This document shows, one piece after another, positions 1 through 13,838 of a stretch of 64,000 bases of DNA. The stretch is taken from NCBI GenBank assembly GCA_965222155.1, contig CBDCTH010000012.1, forward strand, positions 1,760,001-1,824,000, in the 5' to 3' direction. The notes under the pieces are model-generated. The model saw only the letters and a list, made by a program, of their open reading frames with translations. It made no database searches and was not told the DNA's origin. The translations under genes were made by a program, and so were the position numbers. The stretch is from Gammaproteobacteria bacterium (lineage in GTDB: Bacteria > Pseudomonadota > Gammaproteobacteria > Eutrophobiales > Eutrophobiaceae). The stretch's first letter is position 1; every line of letters begins with the position of its first letter.

Positions 1-849
1 GGCAAACTTGAAGCGCCCGCTGATACCGAAACTGCGATTAAAGTTCTTAACCGCCTTCTGGAACATGCAAAAACACTACCTGTGCCGGACCTCAGGTCTG
101 TCCCGAAATGGGTTCGTGCTTTCTTTCACCCTCAGACACTCAAAGAGGTATTCCGTCTCAGTGAATTTCTCAGCAACGAACGGCATCATTTCCTGCTGGC
201 GTCCCTGCTTGGTATTCTGCACCATCAAAGACCTGGATTTCTGTCGTTTCCCAGCAGTCACCTCGTTCCATATCTTCGGTCAAAAAAATACCCCAGGGAT
301 AGCTATCCTGAACTTTATCAATACCGCTCCGTTGCCGAGCGCCTGCAAGCTAAGGTAAAGCGCGCACTGAAACGCCCACCAACACGGTCATTAAATAAAT
401 TTGTCGATGACATCAGCAGGTCCTCTGTGGAATCCGTTAACCTCCCTGACGATATCGATTGTGTTATCACAAGCCCCCCTTATATGAACGCGCTGGATTA
501 CAGCCGTGATAATCGTTTGCGTCTCTGGTTTCTCGGTGAAACCCACCTGGAAGCACCAGATCGCGCGTTAGCGAGTCTTCATGCTTTCAGGAAATTAATC
601 AGTTCACTGTTGAAACAATTGCAACAAAAGATGCGCTTGGGCGGTCATTGCGTCTTTGTCATAGGCGAACAGACCTTTCGGGGTGGAGGACGATTTCCAT
701 CCGAAGAGTTAACAAGGATTTTTTTATCACCCCCTTCAACATTTCAGCTATGCGATGTTGTCAGCGACATCATCCCTGACGTTCGCCGTTCGCGGAAATA
801 TTTTGTCGGGGTAAAACGGGAGAATATTCTTGTATTCAGGAAGTTTTGA
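1..849 (+). CDS. DNA amino-methyltransferase (m4C/m6A type), 5' end outside window
   Basis: Frame 1 is open from base 1 (GKLEAPADT...). Catalytic motif IV DCVITSPPY followed by GGHCVFVIGE. Motif I is not visible and presumably lies upstream of the window. Confidence 0.85.
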   Translation, partial: GKLEAPADTETAIKVLNRLLEHAKTLPVPDLRSVPKWVRAFFHPQTLKEVFRLSEFLSNERHHFLLASLLGILHHQRPGFLSFPSSHLVPYLRSKKYPRDSYPELYQYRSVAERLQAKVKRALKRPPTRSLNKFVDDISRSSVESVNLPDDIDCVITSPPYMNALDYSRDNRLRLWFLGETHLEAPDRALASLHAFRKLISSLLKQLQQKMRLGGHCVFVIGEQTFRGGGRFPSEELTRIFLSPPSTFQLCDVVSDIIPDVRRSRKYFVGVKRENILVFRKF

Positions 850-851
850 AT

Positions 852-3342
852 ATGCGTAGAAATCTTCCTCCAAAAGAATTATTTCTTGGAAAAACGATTG
901 GAAGATTTCCAAACCATGTAATTCAAGAGCATGTCAATTCAGGCAATAATGGTCATTTGTTTCTGGCCTTCGATCAATCAACAGAAAGCAAACTCGCGTT
1001 TAAAGTTGTTCCATCTGACAATCTGCCGGATGATGAAGATGAACAACAAATCTATTTAATTGAGGCAAAAAAGGCCAATATTTTACAGCACCCCTCCGTT
1101 GTCCAATACATTGATGTTTTTCCATATCATGTTCCCGATACACTGGTGAAGTGTGTGATTTTTGTATGTAATTTCGTGGATGGCATAAACCTTAGAGACT
1201 ATATAAAGAAAAACCGCTCGGAGATTACAATTGTATTTCTTGCGAACAATGTTTGAGCTATTGTATGAGCTTAAACAACGCAAAATGACCCATGGTGACC
1301 TGCATGCAGGTAACGTTCTTATCTCGAAATCTGAATATGACATCTACGATAGAATTACCTTCCGTGTAACAGACTTTGGTGTAGGTGAATTAACAGGGCT
1401 TTTAGCTCACACAAATGATTATTTATATACTTCTGATACGCTCAGGCAACTGCTGGAATGTATAGAATATCAAAATTGTGAAAGTCGGGATCGATATGCC
1501 TACGAAATTCTTCGTCATGATTTTTTGGAACGGCATCTGACTGAGACAGATCCTCTGGCTGACACATTAGCAATGCAGCCGCAGAAAATGCTGGAAAAAC
1601 TGGACTCTATAGATGGAAAGTATCTGGAGAAGACAACAGGTGAAATCGTTACAACACTAGTCACACCCTTCGACTACCCTAACTGCGAGCAAATAGGAAA
1701 TTCCCATCTTTTACTCAAGAACCTCTATTCCGACCGTTTACTTGGATTATTGGAAATTAGGGCGCGATCAAATTTAATGTTAACCGGACCTCGAGGATGT
1801 GGAAAAACTACTGTTTTCCGTGCACTGAGCCTCGAATATTTGATCTCGACTGAAGATGATCAGCCAAACCGTATCAACTATATCGGCATCTATTATAGAT
1901 GCGACGATCTCTATTTCTCTTTTCCAAGATATAAGACTCCTGGACGATTTGAAGCACTGGACGTCCCCATGCATTTCTTGATCGTGACGTTGCTGGCAAC
2001 TGTACTGGAACAGATTGGCACCTGGGCAAAAAAGCATTTTCCGGATGAATTCAAAAAGAAAGAAGAAGCACTTGTTCTGGAACTTTGGAATTTATTTGAA
2101 TGGCCGTCTCTGAATAATCCAAATGCCAGGCAACTGGCTACGCTAATAAATAAATTAAAAACCAAGGAAAGAAAACGCGCTGCAAAAAAGCAAAATTTTG
2201 TTCATGTACAGACTGAACCTGTCAAAGGCTATTTTGGCCCTGGGGTTATGTTTGATGCTTGTCGTCTTATACGCGACAAGTTTTCTTTCCTTAACGACCG
2301 TCCTTTCTATTTCTTTATTGATGATTATTCTCACCCGAAAATTACTAAGGAGTTACAAGCAAACCTGAACCGATTGCTCATGCACCGCAGCTCGGATGTT
2401 TTTTTCAAACTCTCAACAGAGAGCCCTGTCTCTTTTGTACGCGAGGATGTGGACGGTAAACAGTTTGTAGAATCTCGTGAGCTTGATTTAGTAAATCTCG
2501 GACTGAGATACATCAAAGATGACAAAAATCAAGCGATTGAATTTCTTGATGACCTATTCAGCCGTCGCTTCCAAAGGGTTGATGGATATCCTGTACAAAC
2601 TCTTGAACAACTACTGGGATCAATACCACGCAATGAAAACGCCACGGCCCGTGCTTTTCGAGAGAAACAAGGGCGTCAAAACTATGCTGGCAGAGAAACT
2701 ATAGCCGCAATGTGCAGCGGCGATATTCACTATATTATTCGTCTTGTCGCGAGGATGGTGGATGATTATGGGGGGCCAGACGCTCTGGCAAACTCCCAAA
2801 CACCTTGCATACCTCCTCAACAACAACATGATTCTATCCGCGCTGCTGCAGGTTCGTTTATGGAGTCTGTACGCACTTTACCTCGTTGGGGGAAACAACT
2901 TGCAGAGGCAACGGCAACATTCGGTAGTGTTGCGCATTCTTATCTCATGTACGAAACATCAACCAACGAAGCTAATGAGCCTCCTCACCAAGCTTCCCGG
3001 ATTGAACCATACGAGACATTAAATTTATCCGAGGAAGCACAAGAAATACTTGATGAACTATTACGCTACTCAATTCTCATTGAAGATCCCCGGGGGAAAA
3101 GTCGGAGAGGAAAGGTTGTGCCAAGATTTTTTCTCAGGCGTTATTTAATCCCCCACTTCCACCTGACATTCAGCCGTAGAGACTCCCTCGAATTGGAAAA
3201 TGACCAGATCGAAACCTTATTGTGTAAGCCGCAGACATTCGAGGAACAGATGAGATTAAAATCTTTAGAAGATGCAGCGCGCCGGCGCCGAAGAGATCCA
3301 GATCAACTGCAACTCCTCGAAGAGGAGGGTCCGCGTGTTTGA
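852..3342 (+). pseudogene. Ser/Thr-type protein kinase fused to ORC/CDC6-like AAA+ ATPase, frameshifted near 1235
   Basis: ORF 846-1256 has the kinase N-lobe (SGNNG loop, LAFK, EAKK, LQHPSVV). The +1 frame ORF 1231-3342 continues with HGDLHAGN and TDFG, then Walker A GPRGCGKT, Walker B FFIDDY, FFKLSTE and SGDIH. The frameshift could be a real lesion, an assembly error or recoding. Confidence 0.75.
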
Positions 3343-4429
3343 TAAAAATATCCTAAGGACAGATGAACGATTAAGCAAGGTAGCCTGGCCTGCTTTGCAA
3401 ACAATCGATGTTCCCATAGTAGGATCTGGTGACTGTTTGTTGATATGTGCGGGATTTGAAGATCGATCTATCGAAACACTACGCCGAATACTGGATGCTA
3501 GAAAATCCGGCTTCGTTCTTGGATTAGTAAGTTATTTACCCAAGCAACCCGAGAATAGGCAAGAAGAATTACACACAATCATCCAGAATGCTGATCTTCA
3601 AGTAAGAAGATTTGTTTATGACCGTGAAAATCCAGCAGGTATAGGGAAGGAGCTAAAAAGCTTTACAGAGGGATTCGACCGCGTTTTTATTGATATTTCC
3701 GGCATGTCACGCCTGCTTATCGTTCAGTTACTGGTTGCCCTGTTGACTCGTGACAATGATTCAGTAACGCTAATCTATGGCGAGGCCGATGTATATCCAC
3801 CATCTGAAGATAAATTCGAACAAGATTACAGAGAGAATAATTCCAATCCGATCCCAGGTTACCTGTCGTCTGGAATTTTTGAAATAGCAACAACTCCTGA
3901 ATTGAGTTCTGTATCTATGTTAGGTGAAGCCCTCAGGCTGATAGCATTTCCGTCCTTTGATCCTGCACAGCTCACGAATTTGCTCCATGAATTACAACCT
4001 GCTTACACAGAATTTATTCATGGCGCACCACCAGCCCGAAAGAACAAGTGGAGAACGGAGGCAATCCGCAAACTTAACCGATCTACACTGGATGAACTTC
4101 GGGGGAAAAGGGACCATGAGACCTCCACGCTTGACTATAGGGAGACACTACATAAGTTGCTTAAGATATATGCAGAACGCAGTATGTTTGATCGCCTTGT
4201 AGTTGCTCCGACCGGTAGTAAGATGCAAGCAGTAGCTGTGGGTTTATTCCGCGCGGCGTTGTATGACGTTCAAATCGTTTATCCAACTCCACAGGTTTTT
4301 ACGACACCGAAAGAACATACTTTAGGGCTGCGTCAACTGTATCAACTAGATATACCTGCCGAAGCTTTTATTAATGTCATCGGGAACTCCAGGGACGATT
4401 TCAGCGATACGCTCGAAACACATCCATGA
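3335..4429 (+). CDS. Hypothetical protein with two tandem CARF-like Rossmann repeats
   Basis: GTG at 3335 with RBS GAGGAGG (3322-3328), overlapping the upstream stop. Repeat 1: CAGFEDRS...VFIDISGMSR...LIY. Repeat 2: FPSFD...VVAPTGSKMQ...IVYP. Confidence 0.6.
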   Translation: MFDKNILRTDERLSKVAWPALQTIDVPIVGSGDCLLICAGFEDRSIETLRRILDARKSGFVLGLVSYLPKQPENRQEELHTIIQNADLQVRRFVYDRENPAGIGKELKSFTEGFDRVFIDISGMSRLLIVQLLVALLTRDNDSVTLIYGEADVYPPSEDKFEQDYRENNSNPIPGYLSSGIFEIATTPELSSVSMLGEALRLIAFPSFDPAQLTNLLHELQPAYTEFIHGAPPARKNKWRTEAIRKLNRSTLDELRGKRDHETSTLDYRETLHKLLKIYAERSMFDRLVVAPTGSKMQAVAVGLFRAALYDVQIVYPTPQVFTTPKEHTLGLRQLYQLDIPAEAFINVIGNSRDDFSDTLETHP

Positions 4430-4580: not shown

Positions 4581-5871
4581 GGAACCTCTAATAATTGACG
4601 ATTTCCGTTACTATCGCTATCTATGCGGGCAAGCCGGGTTCTTTTACATATAAATGTATTCGGCCAGTGGCGAAATGACCCCGTGCTCGCCTTCATCGAC
4701 CCCTTAATCGGGCCGTTTTATTGCCTTCGGGTGTCGGTTTGACACCAGCCGGGCGTTGTCTCCGTCAAGCAGGCGCGCTGACCCCTTCCAGGTAACACAG
4801 TCGTCGCATGTTATACCCCAGGTTCAGCATCCCTATGGCCAACTCACTGCGCGCCAGCCCGATACAGCGTATCAGCTTGGCCCGGGTCGCACACTGCGCC
4901 CCGAACACGTGCTCCACCCGCACCCGCACCTTGGCCCGCGTGCGGTTGCCCTGCTGCGCCCACGCCGTCAACGGCTTGTTGCGGCGCCCCTTGCGCTGAA
5001 TGTGGCTGCGGTAGCGCTGGGCCTGCAAGCGTTCCTCCTGCTCCCTGGAACGGTAGGCGCGGTCCGCCCATATCGCCTTGCTGCTGTTGTGCTCATCCAA
5101 CAACTCATCGAACAACTGCGAGTCATGCACGTTGGCCGGCGTCACCGCATACTTGCGTACCAGCTTGTGTTTGTTATCGACATTCACGTGGTTCTTGTAC
5201 CCGTAATGACTCCTGCCCCGCTGCTTCGTCCAACGAGCCTCCACGTCCTTCTGCCGCCGCTTGGATTTGGCTGCCTCATCGTCCCAGCCCGCAGGCGCCT
5301 CCCCCGCCTTAAGCGCCGCATTCTCCTCGCGCGTGTTGCGCTGCACCGGCACCAAGGAAGCATCCACCCACTGCCCCGTGCGCGCCCGATACCCCAAGTC
5401 TGCTAACTGCTCGGCAAACCGTGCAAACAGTTCCTCCGTCAATTTCAGCTCCACCAACTTCTCACGAAACGCCCAAAAGGTCTTCGCAGCCGGTGCCCGA
5501 CGCACATTATCCAACCCCATAAACCGCTGAAAACTGCGCCGGTACTCAAGCTGATATTCCAACTGCTCATCACTCAACCCGTACAAATGCTGTAACACCA
5601 ACCCCTTGAACAGCAGCACCTCATCCCGACGCGGGGCGCCCGCATTGCGCTTGCGGGTCGTGGGTCGAATACGCACCAATAGCGGACGAAACGCCTCCCA
5701 GTCCACTACCTCACCCAACCGCACCAGGGGATCCTTCAGTTTATTCAAGCGGGTGTCTTGCAAGTCAAACAACGAACCGAATATGTCTTGTGTCTTCATG
5801 AAACCACCTTGAGGAAAAAGTTGAAATAAGTCACCGCTATTATATCATTCGATTGAATAAATAGAGGTTCC
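4581..5871 (-). mobile_element. IS5-family insertion sequence, complete
   Basis: Terminal inverted repeats GGAACCTCTA (4581-4590) and TAGAGGTTCC (5862-5871). Flanking direct repeat TTGAAG at 4575-4580 and 5872-5877. Contains a transposase ORF. Confidence 0.92.
4765..5799 (-). CDS. IS5-family DDE transposase
   Basis: Motifs LYGLSDEQLE, VDASLV, HYGYKNH, TPANVHD, WADRAY and RVRVEHVFG. Confidence 0.93.
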   Translation of the reverse strand: MKTQDIFGSLFDLQDTRLNKLKDPLVRLGEVVDWEAFRPLLVRIRPTTRKRNAGAPRRDEVLLFKGLVLQHLYGLSDEQLEYQLEYRRSFQRFMGLDNVRRAPAAKTFWAFREKLVELKLTEELFARFAEQLADLGYRARTGQWVDASLVPVQRNTREENAALKAGEAPAGWDDEAAKSKRRQKDVEARWTKQRGRSHYGYKNHVNVDNKHKLVRKYAVTPANVHDSQLFDELLDEHNSSKAIWADRAYRSREQEERLQAQRYRSHIQRKGRRNKPLTAWAQQGNRTRAKVRVRVEHVFGAQCATRAKLIRCIGLARSELAIGMLNLGYNMRRLCYLEGVSAPA

Positions 5872-5914
5872 TTGAAGTTGGTAACATACATTCTGTAGTT
5901 ACTATGATAACGCT

Positions 5915-7477: not shown

Positions 7478-7598
7478 CGTCATTCCGGCGCAAGTCGGAA
7501 TCCAGTAAAATGGACCTTCCCTGGATTACAGCATTCCGGGATAAGCTTATAGATAAGGGAGGTTTAATAACTGGATTCCGGCTTGCGCCGGAATGACG
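7478..7598. repeat. Inverted pair of CGTC-type REP palindromes
   Basis: CGTCATTCCGGCGCAAGTCGGAATCCAGT (7478-7506) and its near reverse complement ACTGGATTCCGGCTTGCGCCGGAATGACG (7570-7598). Confidence 0.85.
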
Positions 7599-7613
7599 AC
7601 AGAGAGCGTAATT

Positions 7614-8813
7614 ATGCCTGATTTCACTTATGAAATAGAAGACATCAAACTGGCGCGGCAAGGGTTGGAGCGCATAAACTGGGTACGCGAGCGTATGCCG
7701 GTCTTACGCCAGGTCAAAGAGGACTTCAGCAGGACCAGGCCTTTTGCAGGCTTGCGTATTGGTATCTGTTTGCACGTGGAAGCAAAGACCGGTGTCTGGC
7801 TGGACGCACTGACCAGCGGCGGTGCGGAGATCGTAATCACCGGCTGGCCCGGAACCACCCAGGATGAGGTGGCTGCCGCATTGGTGGCAGAATACAACGT
7901 CCGGGTATTTGCCAAAAGAAGTGAAACCTTCGATCAGCATCTTGATTACGCGGCAAAGGTGTTATCCACCGAACCCAATCTGATTGCCGATAATGGCGCG
8001 GATTTGCATGTGCTGGCGCTTACCAATCCGGACTTTTCCAGCGCAAAAGCGAAGATTATCGGCGCTACCGAGGAGACTACCACCGGCGGTTTCCGTTTAC
8101 GCGAGGACATTGATGAACACATCTTCCCCACCCTCATTATTAATGACACTCGGGCAAAACGCATTATTGAAAACCGCTACGGCGTCGGCCAATCTGTGGT
8201 TGACGGCATCATGCGCTGTTCCAACCTGCTTATCGGCGGCAAGCGGGTAACTGTCATCGGTTATGGTTATTGTGGCCAGGGTATCGCCCGCGCCTTGCGT
8301 GGCCTGGGCGCGCGCGTGACCATAGTCGATATCGATCCCCTGACGCGATTGGAAGCGCATCTGGAGGGTTATCATACGACTGAACTGGAACAAGTCCTAC
8401 CGGTCAGCGATATCGTCATCACCGTCACGGGCAGACCGGGAGCACTCAAACGAGAACATCTGACACTGATGAAGGATGGCGCCGTATTATGCAACGCCGG
8501 TGCTTTTGAAAACGAGATCGACCTGCCCGGCCTGCGCGAACTGTCCTCTGAGCCACGCCAAATCATGCCGGATATCCAGAAATTCAAGCTGGGCAACGGT
8601 AAAATTATTTACCTGTTTGGCAAAGGTAACAGTGTTAACCTGACCGCCGGTGACGGTAATCCCATAGAAGTTATGGATCTGGGTCTGGCTCTGCAATCCC
8701 TGTCCCTGGCATACCTCGCGACTGACAGCCAATCCTTGCCTGCAGGACCACAGACAGTGCCAAAGGAAATCGAAGACGAAGTGGCCGTCAGGACCTTGCG
8801 GGCCTGGTCATAG
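7614..8813 (+). CDS. ahcY: Adenosylhomocysteinase (AhcY)-family protein, divergent active site
   Basis: Motifs CLHVEAKT, TQD, EETTTG, NRYGVGQS, GYGYCGQG and NL..GDG.P.EVMD. Start moved to ATG 7614 because ATG 7593 lies inside the REP. Confidence 0.8.
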   Translation: MPDFTYEIEDIKLARQGLERINWVRERMPVLRQVKEDFSRTRPFAGLRIGICLHVEAKTGVWLDALTSGGAEIVITGWPGTTQDEVAAALVAEYNVRVFAKRSETFDQHLDYAAKVLSTEPNLIADNGADLHVLALTNPDFSSAKAKIIGATEETTTGGFRLREDIDEHIFPTLIINDTRAKRIIENRYGVGQSVVDGIMRCSNLLIGGKRVTVIGYGYCGQGIARALRGLGARVTIVDIDPLTRLEAHLEGYHTTELEQVLPVSDIVITVTGRPGALKREHLTLMKDGAVLCNAGAFENEIDLPGLRELSSEPRQIMPDIQKFKLGNGKIIYLFGKGNSVNLTAGDGNPIEVMDLGLALQSLSLAYLATDSQSLPAGPQTVPKEIEDEVAVRTLRAWS

Positions 8814-10005: not shown

Positions 10006-12285
10006 CTATTTCCAGCGATAGCCGATACTGCCGCCGACCCAGCGCGGCGGCGCATAGGATTCGATACCATAACCGCCACCGGCGTAGGAAAGATCAAACG
10101 CGTAGACTGTGCGTTCAACATCGGTAAGGTTGTTCACGAACAAGCTTGCGTCCCAGCAGACATCCTGGCTGGTATAGGTGAGACGGGCATTGGCGACGAA
10201 ATAATCATCATCACTCAGTACAGGGTGGTTGATGGTGCTGTAGAAACGATCGTCCACATAGTTAAAATCCCCCTGTATCGCCAGTGAACCGCCAAAAGCA
10301 GGCCACTCATAGCGGGCCAACCCGTTTATGGATAATTCAGGGGCAAACGGCATTTCCTGTTTGGCCGTTCTACCGGAGGGGAGTATCACACCGCTGACTT
10401 CAGTATCAACATAGGCGAGACCCAATATGATATCCAGGCCATCAACAGGCGTTGCCTGAAATTCAACCTCACCACCATAAAGTTCGGCATCAGCATTGAA
10501 CAACACAACAGCGACACCGATAAAGTTATAGGCCTGGTAATCGTCGTAATCATAGTAAAACATACTGGCATTTAACCTTGCCCGGCCATTGGCAAAGTTT
10601 GCTTTAAAACCACCTTCATAGTTGACCAGTTCCTCGGGCTTGATCTGCAGGCTGGCCAGGCTTACGCCCGCACCGGCGCCGACTGTTGCGTTAAGCGCCC
10701 CACCCTTATTGCCACGGGTGACACCGGCATACAACAACAGGTCATCATTGGGACGATAGTTCAACTCAATCTTACCCGCCCAGTCACCATCTGAACGGCC
10801 ACCGGTAATGTGGGTATCAAAGGCAATTCCGAAGGCATCACAGGTGCCGGCAAGACCAGACGCACTGAAACCAAAGGCGTCGGTATCGAGGCACTGGTTT
10901 AACAGGTCAATTTTCTTCTCATCTTCGGTCCAGCGCAAACCACCAATTACTGACATCTGTTCGGTAAAGGCAATTTCCGCCTGCCCGAATATCGCCCAGG
11001 TTTCAGTCTCATGATTAAAATCATCAAAAAAGTTTATATCGAAAAACGGCGACTGATCGACCTGTTGGCGGGAATCACTGTCAATATTGAGATAATAACC
11101 ACCCAACACCCATTCCATGCTATCCGAGCTTCCGTTCAACCTGATTTCCTGGGATATCTGATCCGCATCCTGCTCCTGGTAGAAGGTAGTGACAGGTAAT
11201 GGAGAGCTGTCGTTATCTTCCAGATAGGCTTTGTCAATAGTCTGATAGTCGGTAATGGAGGTCAGGGTAATTGAATCGCTGATTTCCCAGGTGATGGTCC
11301 CGCTGAAACCAAACATCTCTCTGTCAAAGAAACCAATGGTATCCGGTGATACGCTGAAGACATCACCGGTTTCAGTATTGCCGTAACAATCCGAACCCCC
11401 CGGTGGAGTGACAGTAGGGAATCCATTGAAACCGGAGCAGAAACCATCCAGTAATGCCCGGTTGGTGTCTGTAATTTTTTCACTTAAGCCATCGTTGTCA
11501 AAATTCGGCGCCGAACCTATCTGATGATAGACGCCAGCATTGGTATTATCCGTATTGCTGTAGCGTGCGCTCAGCAACACATTTACCTGATCGCTGATAT
11601 CCACATCCAACTGGCCGCGTACATTGATGGTGGCATTTTCCACGATATCCTCACCACCGGTATTTTCATAATAGCCGTCATGATGTTCGGATGAGAAAGA
11701 CAGACGTCCACGTACGCTATTGGAGAACGGGCCACTAATTGCCGCCTCTGAACGGATCTTGTCATATTCGGCATATGTCAGATCGGCAAAGGCTTCAAAC
11801 TCATACGTTGGTTTTTTTGTCACCAGGTGAATCAGGCCACCAGTGGCGTTTCGTCCAAATAAAGTACCCTGTGGGCCGCGTAACACTTCCACTCGCTCAA
11901 GATCAAACATGGAGACATTCACGCCACCGATGAAACTGACATAGGCGCCGTCGACATAAACGGCATTCGGTGATTCCTGGTGATCGGCAAAATCCAGTTG
12001 TGCAACTCCCCGGAGATTGAGTGTCGTGGCTGCACCTGCTCCCCCGTACTCGCCGATCAGTAAACCGGGCGTCTGGTTTTCCAGGTCGGTGGTGTCTTCT
12101 ACCCCCAAGGCACGTAGTTGAGCACCACTGAATGCAGTAACTGAAATCCCCACGTCCTGCATGTTCTGCTCTCGTTTTTGTGCGGTAACAACGATTTCTT
12201 CCAGTAATTGGGCATTGGCTATCAGTGGCAATGCCAAAACAGCTAACGTTAACAATGAAGATGAAAATATTTTATAAATGCGCAT
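10006..12285 (-). CDS. TonB-dependent receptor
   Basis: Signal peptide, TonB box EEIVVTAQKRE, plug motif ERVEVLRGPQGTLFGRNATGG, C-terminal aromatic residue. Confidence 0.95.
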   Translation of the reverse strand: MRIYKIFSSSLLTLAVLALPLIANAQLLEEIVVTAQKREQNMQDVGISVTAFSGAQLRALGVEDTTDLENQTPGLLIGEYGGAGAATTLNLRGVAQLDFADHQESPNAVYVDGAYVSFIGGVNVSMFDLERVEVLRGPQGTLFGRNATGGLIHLVTKKPTYEFEAFADLTYAEYDKIRSEAAISGPFSNSVRGRLSFSSEHHDGYYENTGGEDIVENATINVRGQLDVDISDQVNVLLSARYSNTDNTNAGVYHQIGSAPNFDNDGLSEKITDTNRALLDGFCSGFNGFPTVTPPGGSDCYGNTETGDVFSVSPDTIGFFDREMFGFSGTITWEISDSITLTSITDYQTIDKAYLEDNDSSPLPVTTFYQEQDADQISQEIRLNGSSDSMEWVLGGYYLNIDSDSRQQVDQSPFFDINFFDDFNHETETWAIFGQAEIAFTEQMSVIGGLRWTEDEKKIDLLNQCLDTDAFGFSASGLAGTCDAFGIAFDTHITGGRSDGDWAGKIELNYRPNDDLLLYAGVTRGNKGGALNATVGAGAGVSLASLQIKPEELVNYEGGFKANFANGRARLNASMFYYDYDDYQAYNFIGVAVVLFNADAELYGGEVEFQATPVDGLDIILGLAYVDTEVSGVILPSGRTAKQEMPFAPELSINGLARYEWPAFGGSLAIQGDFNYVDDRFYSTINHPVLSDDDYFVANARLTYTSQDVCWDASLFVNNLTDVERTVYAFDLSYAGGGYGIESYAPPRWVGGSIGYRWK

Positions 12286-12635
12286 AATTATAGATCCCCC
12301 ATTGGTACAGCAAGAATATAATCGTTTTGAATAAAACTGGGCAACGCTAACACGTGGGGCAACAAGATTGATTAGGAAAATGGGAGTATTTTTTACTTGT
12401 AAGGTTCAATATTGATATGTGTTGTCAAAATTCAACTTTTGGATTGTCGTGAGTGCCGTTTTAGCTCCAGGCACCATCGCTGCTCCAGTGCTACTTAGTA
12501 AATTCGCGTTATCTACTATGTAGCACCTACATATGAGTGTCTACTAACCTTGTCCATTAGTGCACTTTCGGCATTAATGTCGTCCTTTAGAATATGTTCG
12601 GGAACAGCAGCAATATTTGTATCATCTGTGACAGG

Positions 12636-13838
12636 TCAGGACTGATCGGGATGGTGTATGTCTTCAACGGGTAATTGAGGCACTTTATTAGCTGATGCAT
12701 CCATGCCGGAAAGAATTTTCCCAGCCACTAATTTTTGAAAATGCAATGTCGTTGTTTCCTGAACAGGAGCAAAGGCGCCGCCCGTAAAGGCTTCAGACGT
12801 CCGGCCCCTTTGTGCCGATTCACAGATACCTATGTCCTCATTATTTACCTGGGACAACATATCCATGAGCTGTTGCCGGTCATGCTGGAGTTCAGGATTG
12901 GAAGCACAATCACCAATCAGGAACAGCTCTATGCGCTCCCTGGTTAAAATCGGCGAAACAGGCATGATGATATTAGCGAAAAAGAAGTCCGCCATGGAAA
13001 TGATGAGCAGGTTTGAAGGCAGGTACATCGATTCGCCGGTGGCAAATTCCTCAGGTTTTAAACCCGGGAAGGTCCTGAATTTCCCGGCATAGGAAACGCT
13101 CGGATTATGGCCTTTGACTCCCTGCCCGAGATAATGCCCTGCTCCGAGTATCTGGTAGTGCTCACCCATAGGATTAAATGCATTCATGGATCTATGCACC
13201 CAGGGAAGGTGGTAACTTTCCACAAAGTTTTCCACCACCAGCTTCCAGTTTGCTTCAAATTCCGGTCTTTGACCGAGATTTTTTACGTGTTCCAGCAAGG
13301 AAAGATCAATATGACTCCAACGGTCACTGAGTGGCCTGATAAAATCACTGAAATCTTCGCCATCGCCCGACAAATCTACAAATATCAACCCGGCCCATAC
13401 CCCCGAGCGGACTTCTTTCAGTCCCAATGCCGATTTTTCTATCTCATTGCATTCGTGAATACCTTCGCCACCAACATGAGGCGTTTGTTTCAGATCGCCA
13501 TCAAGATCGTAACTCCATGAATGATAGGGACATACCAGGGTTGTGCGCCTGCCCGGTTGTTCTACCAGTTGAGCGCCGCGATGGCTGCAAACATTATGAA
13601 ACACACGGATATTGGAATCCCTGGTTCGGACTACCAGCAGGGGTTGCTCAAGGATTGTGACCGGATACACGTCGCCATCGTCCTGCACATCACTGACCAG
13701 GCCGACGCATAACCATGAATCACGGAAGAAGTATTTTTTTTCTGCATCCAAGACATCAGTTGAAGTAAAAAAACGGCCGGGCATGCCTTTTGATTCGAAT
13801 ACTGTTTCTTTTAGTTCATTTGTTATCGCGTCATACAT
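12636..13838 (-). CDS. Rieske non-heme iron oxygenase alpha subunit (choline/betaine monooxygenase-like)
   Basis: Rieske ligands CSHRG and CPYH. Mononuclear iron site ENFVESYHLPWVH plus the downstream ED. Confidence 0.9.
   Translation of the reverse strand: MYDAITNELKETVFESKGMPGRFFTSTDVLDAEKKYFFRDSWLCVGLVSDVQDDGDVYPVTILEQPLLVVRTRDSNIRVFHNVCSHRGAQLVEQPGRRTTLVCPYHSWSYDLDGDLKQTPHVGGEGIHECNEIEKSALGLKEVRSGVWAGLIFVDLSGDGEDFSDFIRPLSDRWSHIDLSLLEHVKNLGQRPEFEANWKLVVENFVESYHLPWVHRSMNAFNPMGEHYQILGAGHYLGQGVKGHNPSVSYAGKFRTFPGLKPEEFATGESMYLPSNLLIISMADFFFANIIMPVSPILTRERIELFLIGDCASNPELQHDRQQLMDMLSQVNNEDIGICESAQRGRTSEAFTGGAFAPVQETTTLHFQKLVAGKILSGMDASANKVPQLPVEDIHHPDQS

Follow-up and report, generated by a model that had tools for sequence, protein, structure and literature searches.

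What brings a DNA methyltransferase, a Hanks-type protein kinase fused to an ORC/CDC6-like ATPase and a tandem CARF protein together, one directly after the other, on a gammaproteobacterial contig? The three genes stand at the beginning of a stretch of 64,000 nucleotides (G000:C12:1760001–1824000), which we call the window and whose coordinates are used throughout; the 15 kb upstream of it were also examined. The original prediction, made from the nucleotide sequence alone, proposed a candidate undescribed defence system in which the methyltransferase marks self DNA, the ATPase activates the fused kinase and the CARF-like protein is a nucleotide-binding regulator. We read the locus, with slightly more confidence than doubt, as a decayed copy of a horizontally mobile, three-gene, methylation-linked conflict or defence cassette. 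Strict synteny across phyla, a patchy distribution, conserved motifs and nesting within restriction–modification (RM) and Hma loci support this reading.

Conservation of the three-gene unit

Reading of the open reading frames (ORFs) confirmed the order and coordinates of three co-oriented units on the + strand (Table 1). The TGA stop codon of the methyltransferase gene (847–849) is followed by an ATG at 852, and the TGA of the ATPase (3340–3342) is overlapped by a GTG at 3335; an alignment with 23 homologues favours this GTG as the start codon of the third gene. Not mentioned in the original prediction is that the middle gene is not one open gene here; its frame is split between positions 1236 and 1237. 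The AT-richness noted at the outset is real: the methyltransferase gene has 49.3% GC, the kinase–ATPase gene 42.3% and the CARF gene 43.8%, against a genome mean of 52.9%, and the whole cassette, at 44.3%, falls in the lowest 3% of 4502 genome windows of the same size. It is present as a single copy.

Co-occurrence of the three genes in other genomes had been named beforehand as one of the points on which the proposal could fail. We considered 26 related loci, each encoding a relative of the kinase–ATPase, from a scan that took a single genome for every species. In 24 of them the methylase is the immediate upstream neighbour, and in 24 the CARF gene is the immediate downstream one; all four misses are contigs that end there, the order is kept wherever the contig reaches, and on this point the proposal was not refuted. 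Clustering of all flanking ORFs of these loci gave no fourth gene common to more than six, and the small clusters were opposite-strand shadow ORFs. Further system genes upstream, which had been thought possible, were not found, and the upstream neighbours of the cassette recur in none of the related loci. The identities of the three proteins to the window copies co-vary (r = 0.95–0.99, n = 20 loci); the loci being kin, no more can be concluded from this than that the genes travel as a group.

Judged by the record titles, the loci come from at least nine phyla or classes of bacteria and from two Bathyarchaeia, the groups named being Gammaproteobacteria, Nitrospirota, Binatia, Acidobacteriota, Latescibacterota, Verrucomicrobiota, Desulfobacterota, Clostridia and Bathyarchaeia. 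Close to home the distribution is sparse: one of 60 relatives of the window genome carries the cassette (1/22 in the same genus, 0/38 outside it). Complete E. coli genomes queried with the copy from an Enterobacteriaceae metagenome-assembled genome (MAG) gave no match.

A split, four-gene variant is found on the Bradyrhizobium quebecense plasmid pBq66S1MBc (NZ_CP088025.1, 69538–74553; 4807–9822 of locus L031), where the methylase and CARF genes enclose two separate genes, one for the kinase (246 aa) and one for the ATPase (652 aa). In profile searches the methylase is matched with an E value of 9e-135, the kinase with 4e-34, the ATPase with 1.5e-85 and the CARF protein with 1.5e-71; the RefSeq names are 'DNA methyltransferase' and three times 'hypothetical protein'. 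The variant adjoins a gene annotated as a restriction endonuclease. A gene for ThyX, the flavin-dependent thymidylate synthase, stands directly downstream of it in L031 (64732–80360 of the plasmid record) and another directly upstream of the cassette in a second, unrelated locus (L022:5695–6678). The neighbour is an unusual one to be shared; this may be chance, or ThyX may be an accessory nucleotide-metabolism gene.

The kinase–ATPase

Residue numbers for this protein refer to P0001, an intact form of 833 residues, in which the kinase takes up residues 1–266, the ATPase approximately residues 300–710 and a winged-helix-like part approximately residues 715–800. The AlphaFold2 (AF2) model of P0001 has a pLDDT of 84.1. 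The assignment as a Hanks kinase holds: the fold matches S. aureus PknB (4eqm) with a Z score of 18.9 over 227 aligned residues and the kinase profile matches the same structure at 1.9e-18, the domain being split by a frameshift in the window. The residues Lys51, His151-Gly152-Asp153, Asn158 and Asp178-Phe179-Gly180 are invariant or nearly so in 22 homologues. The 134-residue fragment encoded in the window matches PF00069 at 29.4 bits (E = 6.7e-07), just below the cut-off of 31.7, and the PADLOC mad6 and PD-T4-6 kinase models at E values of 1e-9 to 1e-12.

The ATPase is, as had been proposed, an ORC/CDC6-like AAA+ protein, matching PF24389 (ORC-CDC6-like) at 176.5 bits against a cut-off of 27 (E = 1.3e-51) with both Walker motifs intact. 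Walker A, GPRGCGKT, has an arginine within the loop; Walker B reads FYFFIDDY, and both are invariant in 22 sequences. The protein also has a helical lid. A fold search with the whole 833-residue model was filled by kinases and did not reach the ATPase or the C-terminal part. In the AF2 model residues 718–800 form a helix–strand–strand–helix unit with a conserved basic wing, R-G-K-S-R-R-G, and the C-terminal domain is probably a winged helix. Among the 120 homologues listed, 113 match kinase families together with PF24389 and seven match PF24389 alone. With the catalytic residues of both domains conserved, kinase and ATPase activity would be expected.

The tandem CARF protein

The third gene encodes two Rossmann-like CARF domains in one chain, in agreement with the original prediction. 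The AF2 model of the 364-residue protein has a pLDDT of 87.6 and a pTM of 0.90. A VIA-align search of 48,161 chains gave Can1 (6sce) as the best fold match, with a Z score of 15.6 and a root-mean-square deviation of 3.6 over 241 aligned residues in both domains, followed by Card1 (Z = 13.2), Can2 (12.8) and Csa3 (12.3) and then by Csm6, by Cam1 and, at Z scores of 8–10, by SAVED proteins. By title, at least 22 of the first 25 rows are CRISPR or CBASS proteins with CARF or SAVED domains. The PADLOC CARF6--CARF_CARF_CARF profiles are also matched, with E values of 2.8e-15, 9.5e-10 and 1.1e-09. We assign gene 3 as a single-chain tandem CARF protein because the fold match to Can1 extends across both halves and the CARF6 profiles agree.

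No Pfam or NCBIfam family covers the protein, the Atlas lists its clusters as hypothetical and a sequence search against solved CARF structures gave no match in the Protein Data Bank at E ≤ 1; one family member, P0261, reaches 26 bits with Pfam Csa3_N, whose cut-off is 27. Foldseek was unspecific, giving mostly tandem USP, KaiC and KCC-type Rossmann proteins at TM scores of about 0.2, apart from Can1 at a TMq of 0.47. The conserved loops, GFEDR, DISGMSR and PTGSK in 24 sequences, follow the first and fourth strands of each half, and it is their conservation that would speak for binding of a cyclic oligonucleotide or another nucleotide ligand.

The family is not rare: of 1.84 billion cluster representatives (50% clustering), 1235 match at E ≤ 0.001 and 297 at 1e-30, and nearly all of the best 150 of the 1235 are about 350 residues long. 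Two proteins among these 150 are longer: P0221 (670 aa) carries HisKA/HATPase_c and P0185 (724 aa) a C-terminal calcineurin-like phosphoesterase. Judged from their domains, they would count as rare phospho-signalling fusions of the tandem CARF protein and would lend support to a cassette of the kind proposed here.

The amino-methyltransferase

The full protein of 386 residues, whose ORF starts at G000:C12:1759689, 311 nt before the window, matches the N6/N4 DNA methylase family PF01555 at 47.4 bits against a cut-off of 26.7. The S-adenosylmethionine (SAM)-binding motif I (D-x-F-x-G-S-G-T) falls upstream of the window, in the N-terminal portion of the protein; like the catalytic SPPY motif it is conserved across 20 homologues, and the call of an amino-methyltransferase domain holds. 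The closest solved relatives, found with a profile of the 20 homologues, are the N4-cytosine methyltransferase 8s9n, 2zie and M.MboIIA (1g60). The order of motifs, I and then IV, is permuted with respect to all three, in which the SPPY-type motif precedes the SAM motif. Conservation extends over the full length of the protein, including the region between the motifs, with a mean column identity of 57% in the 20 homologues.

Nesting in defence systems

Defence-island neighbours were sought and found. Many of the related loci lie next to or inside RM, Hma or BREX-related systems, and in six the cassette is nested. In four of these (L006, L007, L009 and L014) it stands between type III Mod and type III Res genes as identified by Pfam; PADLOC assigns the flanking genes to MTase_III (4.9e-187) and REase_III (5.8e-218), with four members each. 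The four loci, from different phyla, have a five-gene block of mod, cassette and res in common, with a gene for a TPR protein between mod and the cassette in L014. Recurrence of this block in four phylum-distant loci suggests that the whole block moves together. In the other two (L002 and L005) the cassette lies between an HmaA-type SNF2 helicase and a DUF1156 methylase, followed by a DUF499 ATPase, a gene set described as Hma, a DUF499-centred system related to BREX (PMC12839542; 10.64898/2026.09.23.753747). Elsewhere we note an adjacent DUF499 ATPase (L004), an Mrr-ResIII protein of 1774 aa with a HicB antitoxin (L003), an HsdR (L008) and an IS30-type integrase (L022).

Nesting of this kind has been used as a rule of discovery. 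Payne and colleagues report that seven of nine candidates chosen by their nesting in Hma and then tested were protective (10.1101/2024.01.29.577857). The present cassette is likewise embedded between genes of multi-gene defence systems, and it is not among HEC-01 to HEC-09 as they are described there.

The same observations allow another explanation, which we regard as unlikely, that the cassette is a non-autonomous add-on which regulates or backs up the restriction-type system around it. It might, for example, sense anti-restriction or failed restriction and switch the kinase on as a second line. Its placement between type III mod and res genes or between the Hma helicase and methylase, the DUF499, HsdR and Mrr-ResIII genes adjacent to it elsewhere and its lack of a nuclease of its own would all suit such a role. 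The window and about half of the loci with long flanks, however, have no RM-type neighbour, and the cassette brings a methylase of its own. Furthermore, the host systems are of different kinds (type III, Hma and type I), a pattern easier to reconcile with a common landing site than with a common partner.

The break in the kinase–ATPase gene

In the window the kinase–ATPase is read as two ORFs in different frames. P0001, from another assembly, is 100% identical to the 703-residue ORF over its full length, and its extra residues fall exactly at the junction. Alignment of the DNA with four homologous loci places an 11-nt gap inside the kinase domain, after the hinge region and before the HGD of the catalytic loop. 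Since the gap splits the domain ahead of the catalytic loop, no intact kinase can be made. A programmed frameshift at 1231–1256 was considered and rejected, the shift being an 11-nt gap with respect to the four loci and to an otherwise identical, intact P0001. Most likely an 11-nt deletion in the kinase domain has inactivated the effector in this genome; the methylase and CARF genes remain open.

An error of assembly or consensus, which would leave the local gene intact, seems improbable to us. Eight other members of the 90% cluster are 825–838 aa long and P0001 is identical outside the gap, as would be expected of such an error. Loss of 11 nt outside any homopolymer is nevertheless not typical of consensus errors, and the public record of the same contig (3,509,455 bp) carries the same split, annotating two proteins of 134 and 697 aa.

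The kinase–ATPase gene is also frameshifted in two MAG loci, at about residue 223 in L007 (3448–5917) and at about residue 325 in L024 (1071–2941). Including the window, three of 27 copies are broken, all of them in this gene, and the methyltransferase and CARF genes give single unbroken matches in all loci. Such a pattern would suit a selfish addiction module, in which the kinase–ATPase is a toxin held in check by methylation, by the CARF protein or by both, and post-segregational killing maintains the genes with no net benefit against phage. The patchy, mobile distribution would also suit it, and in Pgl the toxicity of the methylase is reported to be balanced by other components (PMC4365076). 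We give this explanation little credence. Three breaks in the longest gene, which makes up 53% of the cassette, are not significant (chance approximately 0.15), and MAG assemblies account for two of the three. The strong purifying conservation seen between phyla is compatible with defence too, and addiction and defence are not exclusive.

Predicted docking of the CARF protein and possible sources of a ligand

Both fused relatives and modelling connect the ATPase with the CARF protein. A PADLOC profile for a fused protein (PDLC01925, 1187 positions) is matched by the ATPase at positions 331–816 (E = 4.5e-19) and by the CARF protein at 891–1176 (E = 6.7e-08), and a fused architecture of this kind has been described (PMC4012209). 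In addition, a model of the complex of ATPase residues 262–833 with the CARF protein has an ipSAE of 0.64 (0.68, 0.64 and 0.63 in separate runs), compared with 0.36 for the best control. The ipSAE mark is reached by 58 of 80 solved complexes and by two of 110 mismatched pairs, a calibration that holds only roughly, our own alignments having been used. The runs share at least 64% of their contacts, and the pLDDT of the partners is at least 79. The modelled interface is formed by ATPase residues 353–363, a conserved insert after strand 2, and CARF residues 180–200, both nearly invariant. The model supports a predicted docking of the CARF protein on the ATPase.

A ligand of the CARF protein, if there is one, might be supplied by another system. 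If the cassette were an ancillary effector of type III CRISPR or CBASS, acting in trans, the CARF protein would read cyclic oligoadenylate (cOA) and activate the kinase. The fold is closest to that of Can1, which is activated by cyclic tetra-adenylate, and then to other cOA receptors, and PADLOC files the matched profiles under CRISPR-associated CARF classes. The window genome itself encodes Cas10 of the Cmr2 type (C12:560210–562132, 247 bits) and of the Csm1 type (C12:568700–571339, 697 bits), so type III CRISPR signalling is present in the organism. The two Cas10 genes, about 8 kb apart, are nevertheless some 1.2 Mb from the cassette, and no cas family was seen, either in a Pfam scan of 28 neighbours or among the PADLOC families matched by 119 flanking ORFs, of which the 25 most frequent out of 247 were considered. 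In 22 cassette genomes Cas10 scores over the cut-off in six, a SMODS cyclase in five and either in ten; the other 12, two complete chromosomes among them, show neither. An obligate link to known cyclases is not supported by these counts, and we consider a role as an ancillary effector of this kind doubtful.

Comparison with known systems

Is the combination new? No named system was matched, and PADLOC found no Pgl/Brx or PDC model at E ≤ 0.1 in the four ORFs of the cassette. Membership of MADS, Pgl/BREX, PD-T4-6 and Mokosh was considered and rejected, the matches being to generic kinase or P-loop regions. To this extent the original description of the system as undescribed stands. It has to be qualified by an architecture reported in 2014 and by PADLOC profiles named 'CARF6--CARF_STK_AAA' and 'CARF_CARF_CARF', which genes 2 and 3 match.

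The 2014 architecture is a single protein with a Zn ribbon, a Ser/Thr/Tyr kinase, an AAA+ domain with an arginine in the P-loop, a CARF domain and a winged helix–turn–helix, described by Makarova et al. (PMC4012209). In the part of that work concerned with the fused family, the domain set is the same as that of the present cassette, down to the arginine inside the Walker A loop. The differences are that the CARF protein is here a separate gene, that the probable winged helix is on the ATPase and that no Zn ribbon was seen. A methylase always precedes in our loci, whereas the one passage of the 2014 paper that speaks of a methylase concerns CARF proteins containing a restriction endonuclease and not this family, and the word 'methyltransferase' is absent from its text (PMC4012209). 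That family is called small there (PMC4012209), in contrast to the 1235 representatives found here.

The cassette resembles Pgl/BREX type 2 in combining a DNA methylase, a Hanks-type kinase and an ATPase of the ORC/Cdc6 clade in one defence locus, as that system is outlined in PMC12839542 and PMC4365076. Unlike Pgl/BREX type 2 (PglX, PglW, PglY/BrxC and PglZ), however, it has no PglZ, no ATPase of the size of BrxC and no NERD nuclease; its kinase and ATPase form one chain, a CARF subunit is present and the methylase is small, with motif I before motif IV, and is not PglX. Beyond the Pgl/Brx models, which were not matched at E ≤ 0.1, only the Pfam BrxL_ATPase domain scored, with E = 0.098.

MADS, the methylation-associated defence system encoded by mad1–8, is likewise linked to methylation and has a kinase and an ATPase. 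The cassette kinase matches mad6 (9.4e-12) and the ATPase mad8 (2.7e-05), the latter over the P-loop region only, but the NCBIfam MAD6 equivalog gives 24.9 bits against a cut-off of 460, and there are three conserved genes rather than eight. Can1 and the SAVED proteins share with the CARF protein two CARF-like halves in one polypeptide, a pseudo-dimer. In contrast to Can1 and other tandem receptors, the protein has no fused nuclease or protease, its output being a separate kinase–ATPase, and in the neighbours scanned it is not encoded beside cas or CD-NTase genes. Stk2 and PD-T4-6 have a Hanks kinase as the likely effector, and the PD-T4-6 models are matched at E values of 4e-10 and weaker, but these are stand-alone kinases that lack the AAA+ module, the CARF partner and the methylase. 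The cassette is plausibly a new form of methylation-plus-ATPase/kinase defence, the parts of which have already been catalogued.

A possible mechanism and its weaknesses

If the cassette is a conflict or defence system, we envisage that it works as follows. The methyltransferase, to judge by its family, would place a fixed N4-C or N6-A mark on host DNA. The kinase–ATPase would be sensor and effector in one chain, with the ORC/CDC6-type AAA+ domain and its probable C-terminal winged helix acting as an ATP-driven switch on DNA and the N-terminal Hanks kinase providing the output. The tandem CARF protein, predicted to dock on the conserved insert of the ATPase, may couple the switch to a small nucleotide-type ligand held between its two halves, as the Can1-like fold suggests. 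During infection, unmarked DNA, the ligand or both would release the kinase, which would then phosphorylate host or phage proteins and stop the growth of the phage or of the cell, by analogy with Stk2 and PglW.

Several observations count against a defence cassette, and any protection that it gives is something we infer. No ligand-making enzyme is found in the cassette, nor is a nuclease or any other classical killing domain. The 12 cassette genomes with neither Cas10 nor SMODS add to this difficulty, although many of the genomes are incomplete MAGs and the absence of a cyclase is weak evidence. Conservation of the methylase over its full length is unusual for RM-type enzymes with diversifying specificity, and leaves room for a substrate that is not DNA. 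Around half of the loci whose flanks are long have unremarkable neighbours (a two-component system, BlaR1, an adhesin, IspA-Nudix, adenylosuccinate lyase and a matrixin-like protease). The cassette has no match in the phage collection, and on plasmids there is only the distant Bradyrhizobium variant. A word-index search gave no fused forms of this CARF family among longer proteins, which is weak evidence. As for novelty, nothing in the full texts searched gives a name to the three-gene set or puts it to a test, but supplements were outside the reach of the search and an earlier description is possible.

A more novel version of the defence reading we hold only tentatively. Here the cassette would be a widespread, autonomous immune module of a new design, in which the ORC/Cdc6 switch and Hanks kinase are gated by a docked tandem CARF protein that reads a nucleotide signal made neither by Cas10 nor by a CD-NTase, such as a nucleotide arising from phage or from damage, and the methylase marks self. 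If true, a protein kinase would for the first time be seen under CARF control, and for the first time a CARF pathway would have an epigenetic self-mark of its own.

That the genes form a housekeeping epigenetic or cell-cycle signalling module unrelated to conflict is very improbable: replication control is indeed among the functions of ORC/Cdc6 ATPases and orphan methylases, and the methylase of the cassette has no sign of diversifying specificity, but the cassette occurs in one of 60 relatives, has an atypical GC content, is nested in RM and Hma loci and is broken here without evident loss.

Genomic setting

The cassette ends near an insertion sequence (IS), and the proposed IS5 flank is real, the transposase matching NF033581 with E = 3.8e-80 (Table 1). 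The element is multicopy, with at least six near-full copies of 92–100% identity on C12, C4 and C6; the copies start matching at about 4706 and stop at about 5873–5886. A piece of about 50 nt from the end of the element recurs at more than ten further places in the genome. Since the C-terminus of the CARF protein aligns in full with that in L002, the IS5 did not truncate the gene. Promoter and terminator scans 5′ of the methylase and 3′ of the CARF gene gave nothing above shuffled sequences.

Upstream of the cassette are genes for a SnoaL-like protein (on the opposite strand), a HAD/CTP-dependent riboflavin-kinase-like protein, a 2Fe-2S protein, an AraC regulator and a molybdopterin oxidoreductase; downstream of the IS5 are PhoD, S-adenosylhomocysteine hydrolase and another AraC regulator. 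The S-adenosylhomocysteine hydrolase gene, which comes after the IS5 and PhoD at 3 kb downstream of the methylase, has a host-like GC content and probably has nothing to do with the cassette. In L001 a 2Fe-2S small-subunit-like ORF (12158–12622) overlaps the start of the riboflavin-kinase/HAD ORF (12513–13661) by 110 nt, and the start of this fused CTP-dependent riboflavin-kinase/HAD ORF has probably been called too early.

Table 1. Positions in the window of the cassette genes, their motifs and neighbouring features.
Feature	Position	Strand	Basis or remark
Amino-methyltransferase gene, 3′ 282 codons	1..849	+	Rest of the 386-residue ORF lies upstream of the window
Methyltransferase catalytic motif IV, SPPY	472..483	+	Translation; invariant in 20 of 20 aligned homologues
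Kinase–ATPase gene, 5′ fragment, 134 aa	852..1256	+	Kinase N-lobe, then out-of-frame tail and stop
ATP-anchoring Lys codon	1002..1004	+	
11-nt gap site with respect to homologues	1236..1237	+	DNA alignment with L002, L003, L006 and L009
Kinase–ATPase gene, remainder in shifted frame, 703 aa	1231..3342	+	Kinase catalytic loop, AAA+ domain, lid and winged-helix-like end
Kinase HGD	1291..1299	+	
Kinase Asn	1312..1314	+	
Kinase DFG	1372..1380	+	
Walker A	1786..1809	+	
Walker B	2305..2328	+	
Tandem CARF gene, 364 aa, appears intact	3335..4429	+	AF2 model, fold match and PADLOC CARF6 profiles
CARF loop GFEDR	3452..3466	+	
CARF loop DISGMSR	3692..3712	+	
CARF loop PTGSK	4208..4222	+	
IS5-family insertion sequence, approximate ends	4706..5873	-	Transposase 4765–5799; flanks the cassette and is not part of it
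S-adenosylhomocysteine hydrolase gene	7593..8813		

Implications

Taken for this genome by itself the result is a modest one, a decaying island beside an active IS5. For the family it may mean more. CARF receptors are known to read the second messengers of CRISPR and CBASS and to activate nucleases, proteases or transcription in response. In the cassette two CARF domains are linked to a protein kinase and an ORC-like ATPase, a methylase is always present and a cyclase is lacking; the family is not rare, and it crosses the bacterial–archaeal divide. The plasmid variant comes from a cultured strain of Bradyrhizobium, which opens the idea to direct testing. If the cassette defends its host, phosphorylation would join the outputs of CARF signalling, epigenetic self-marking would be linked to the sensing of nucleotides and the question would be raised of which ligand a CARF protein without a cyclase reads.

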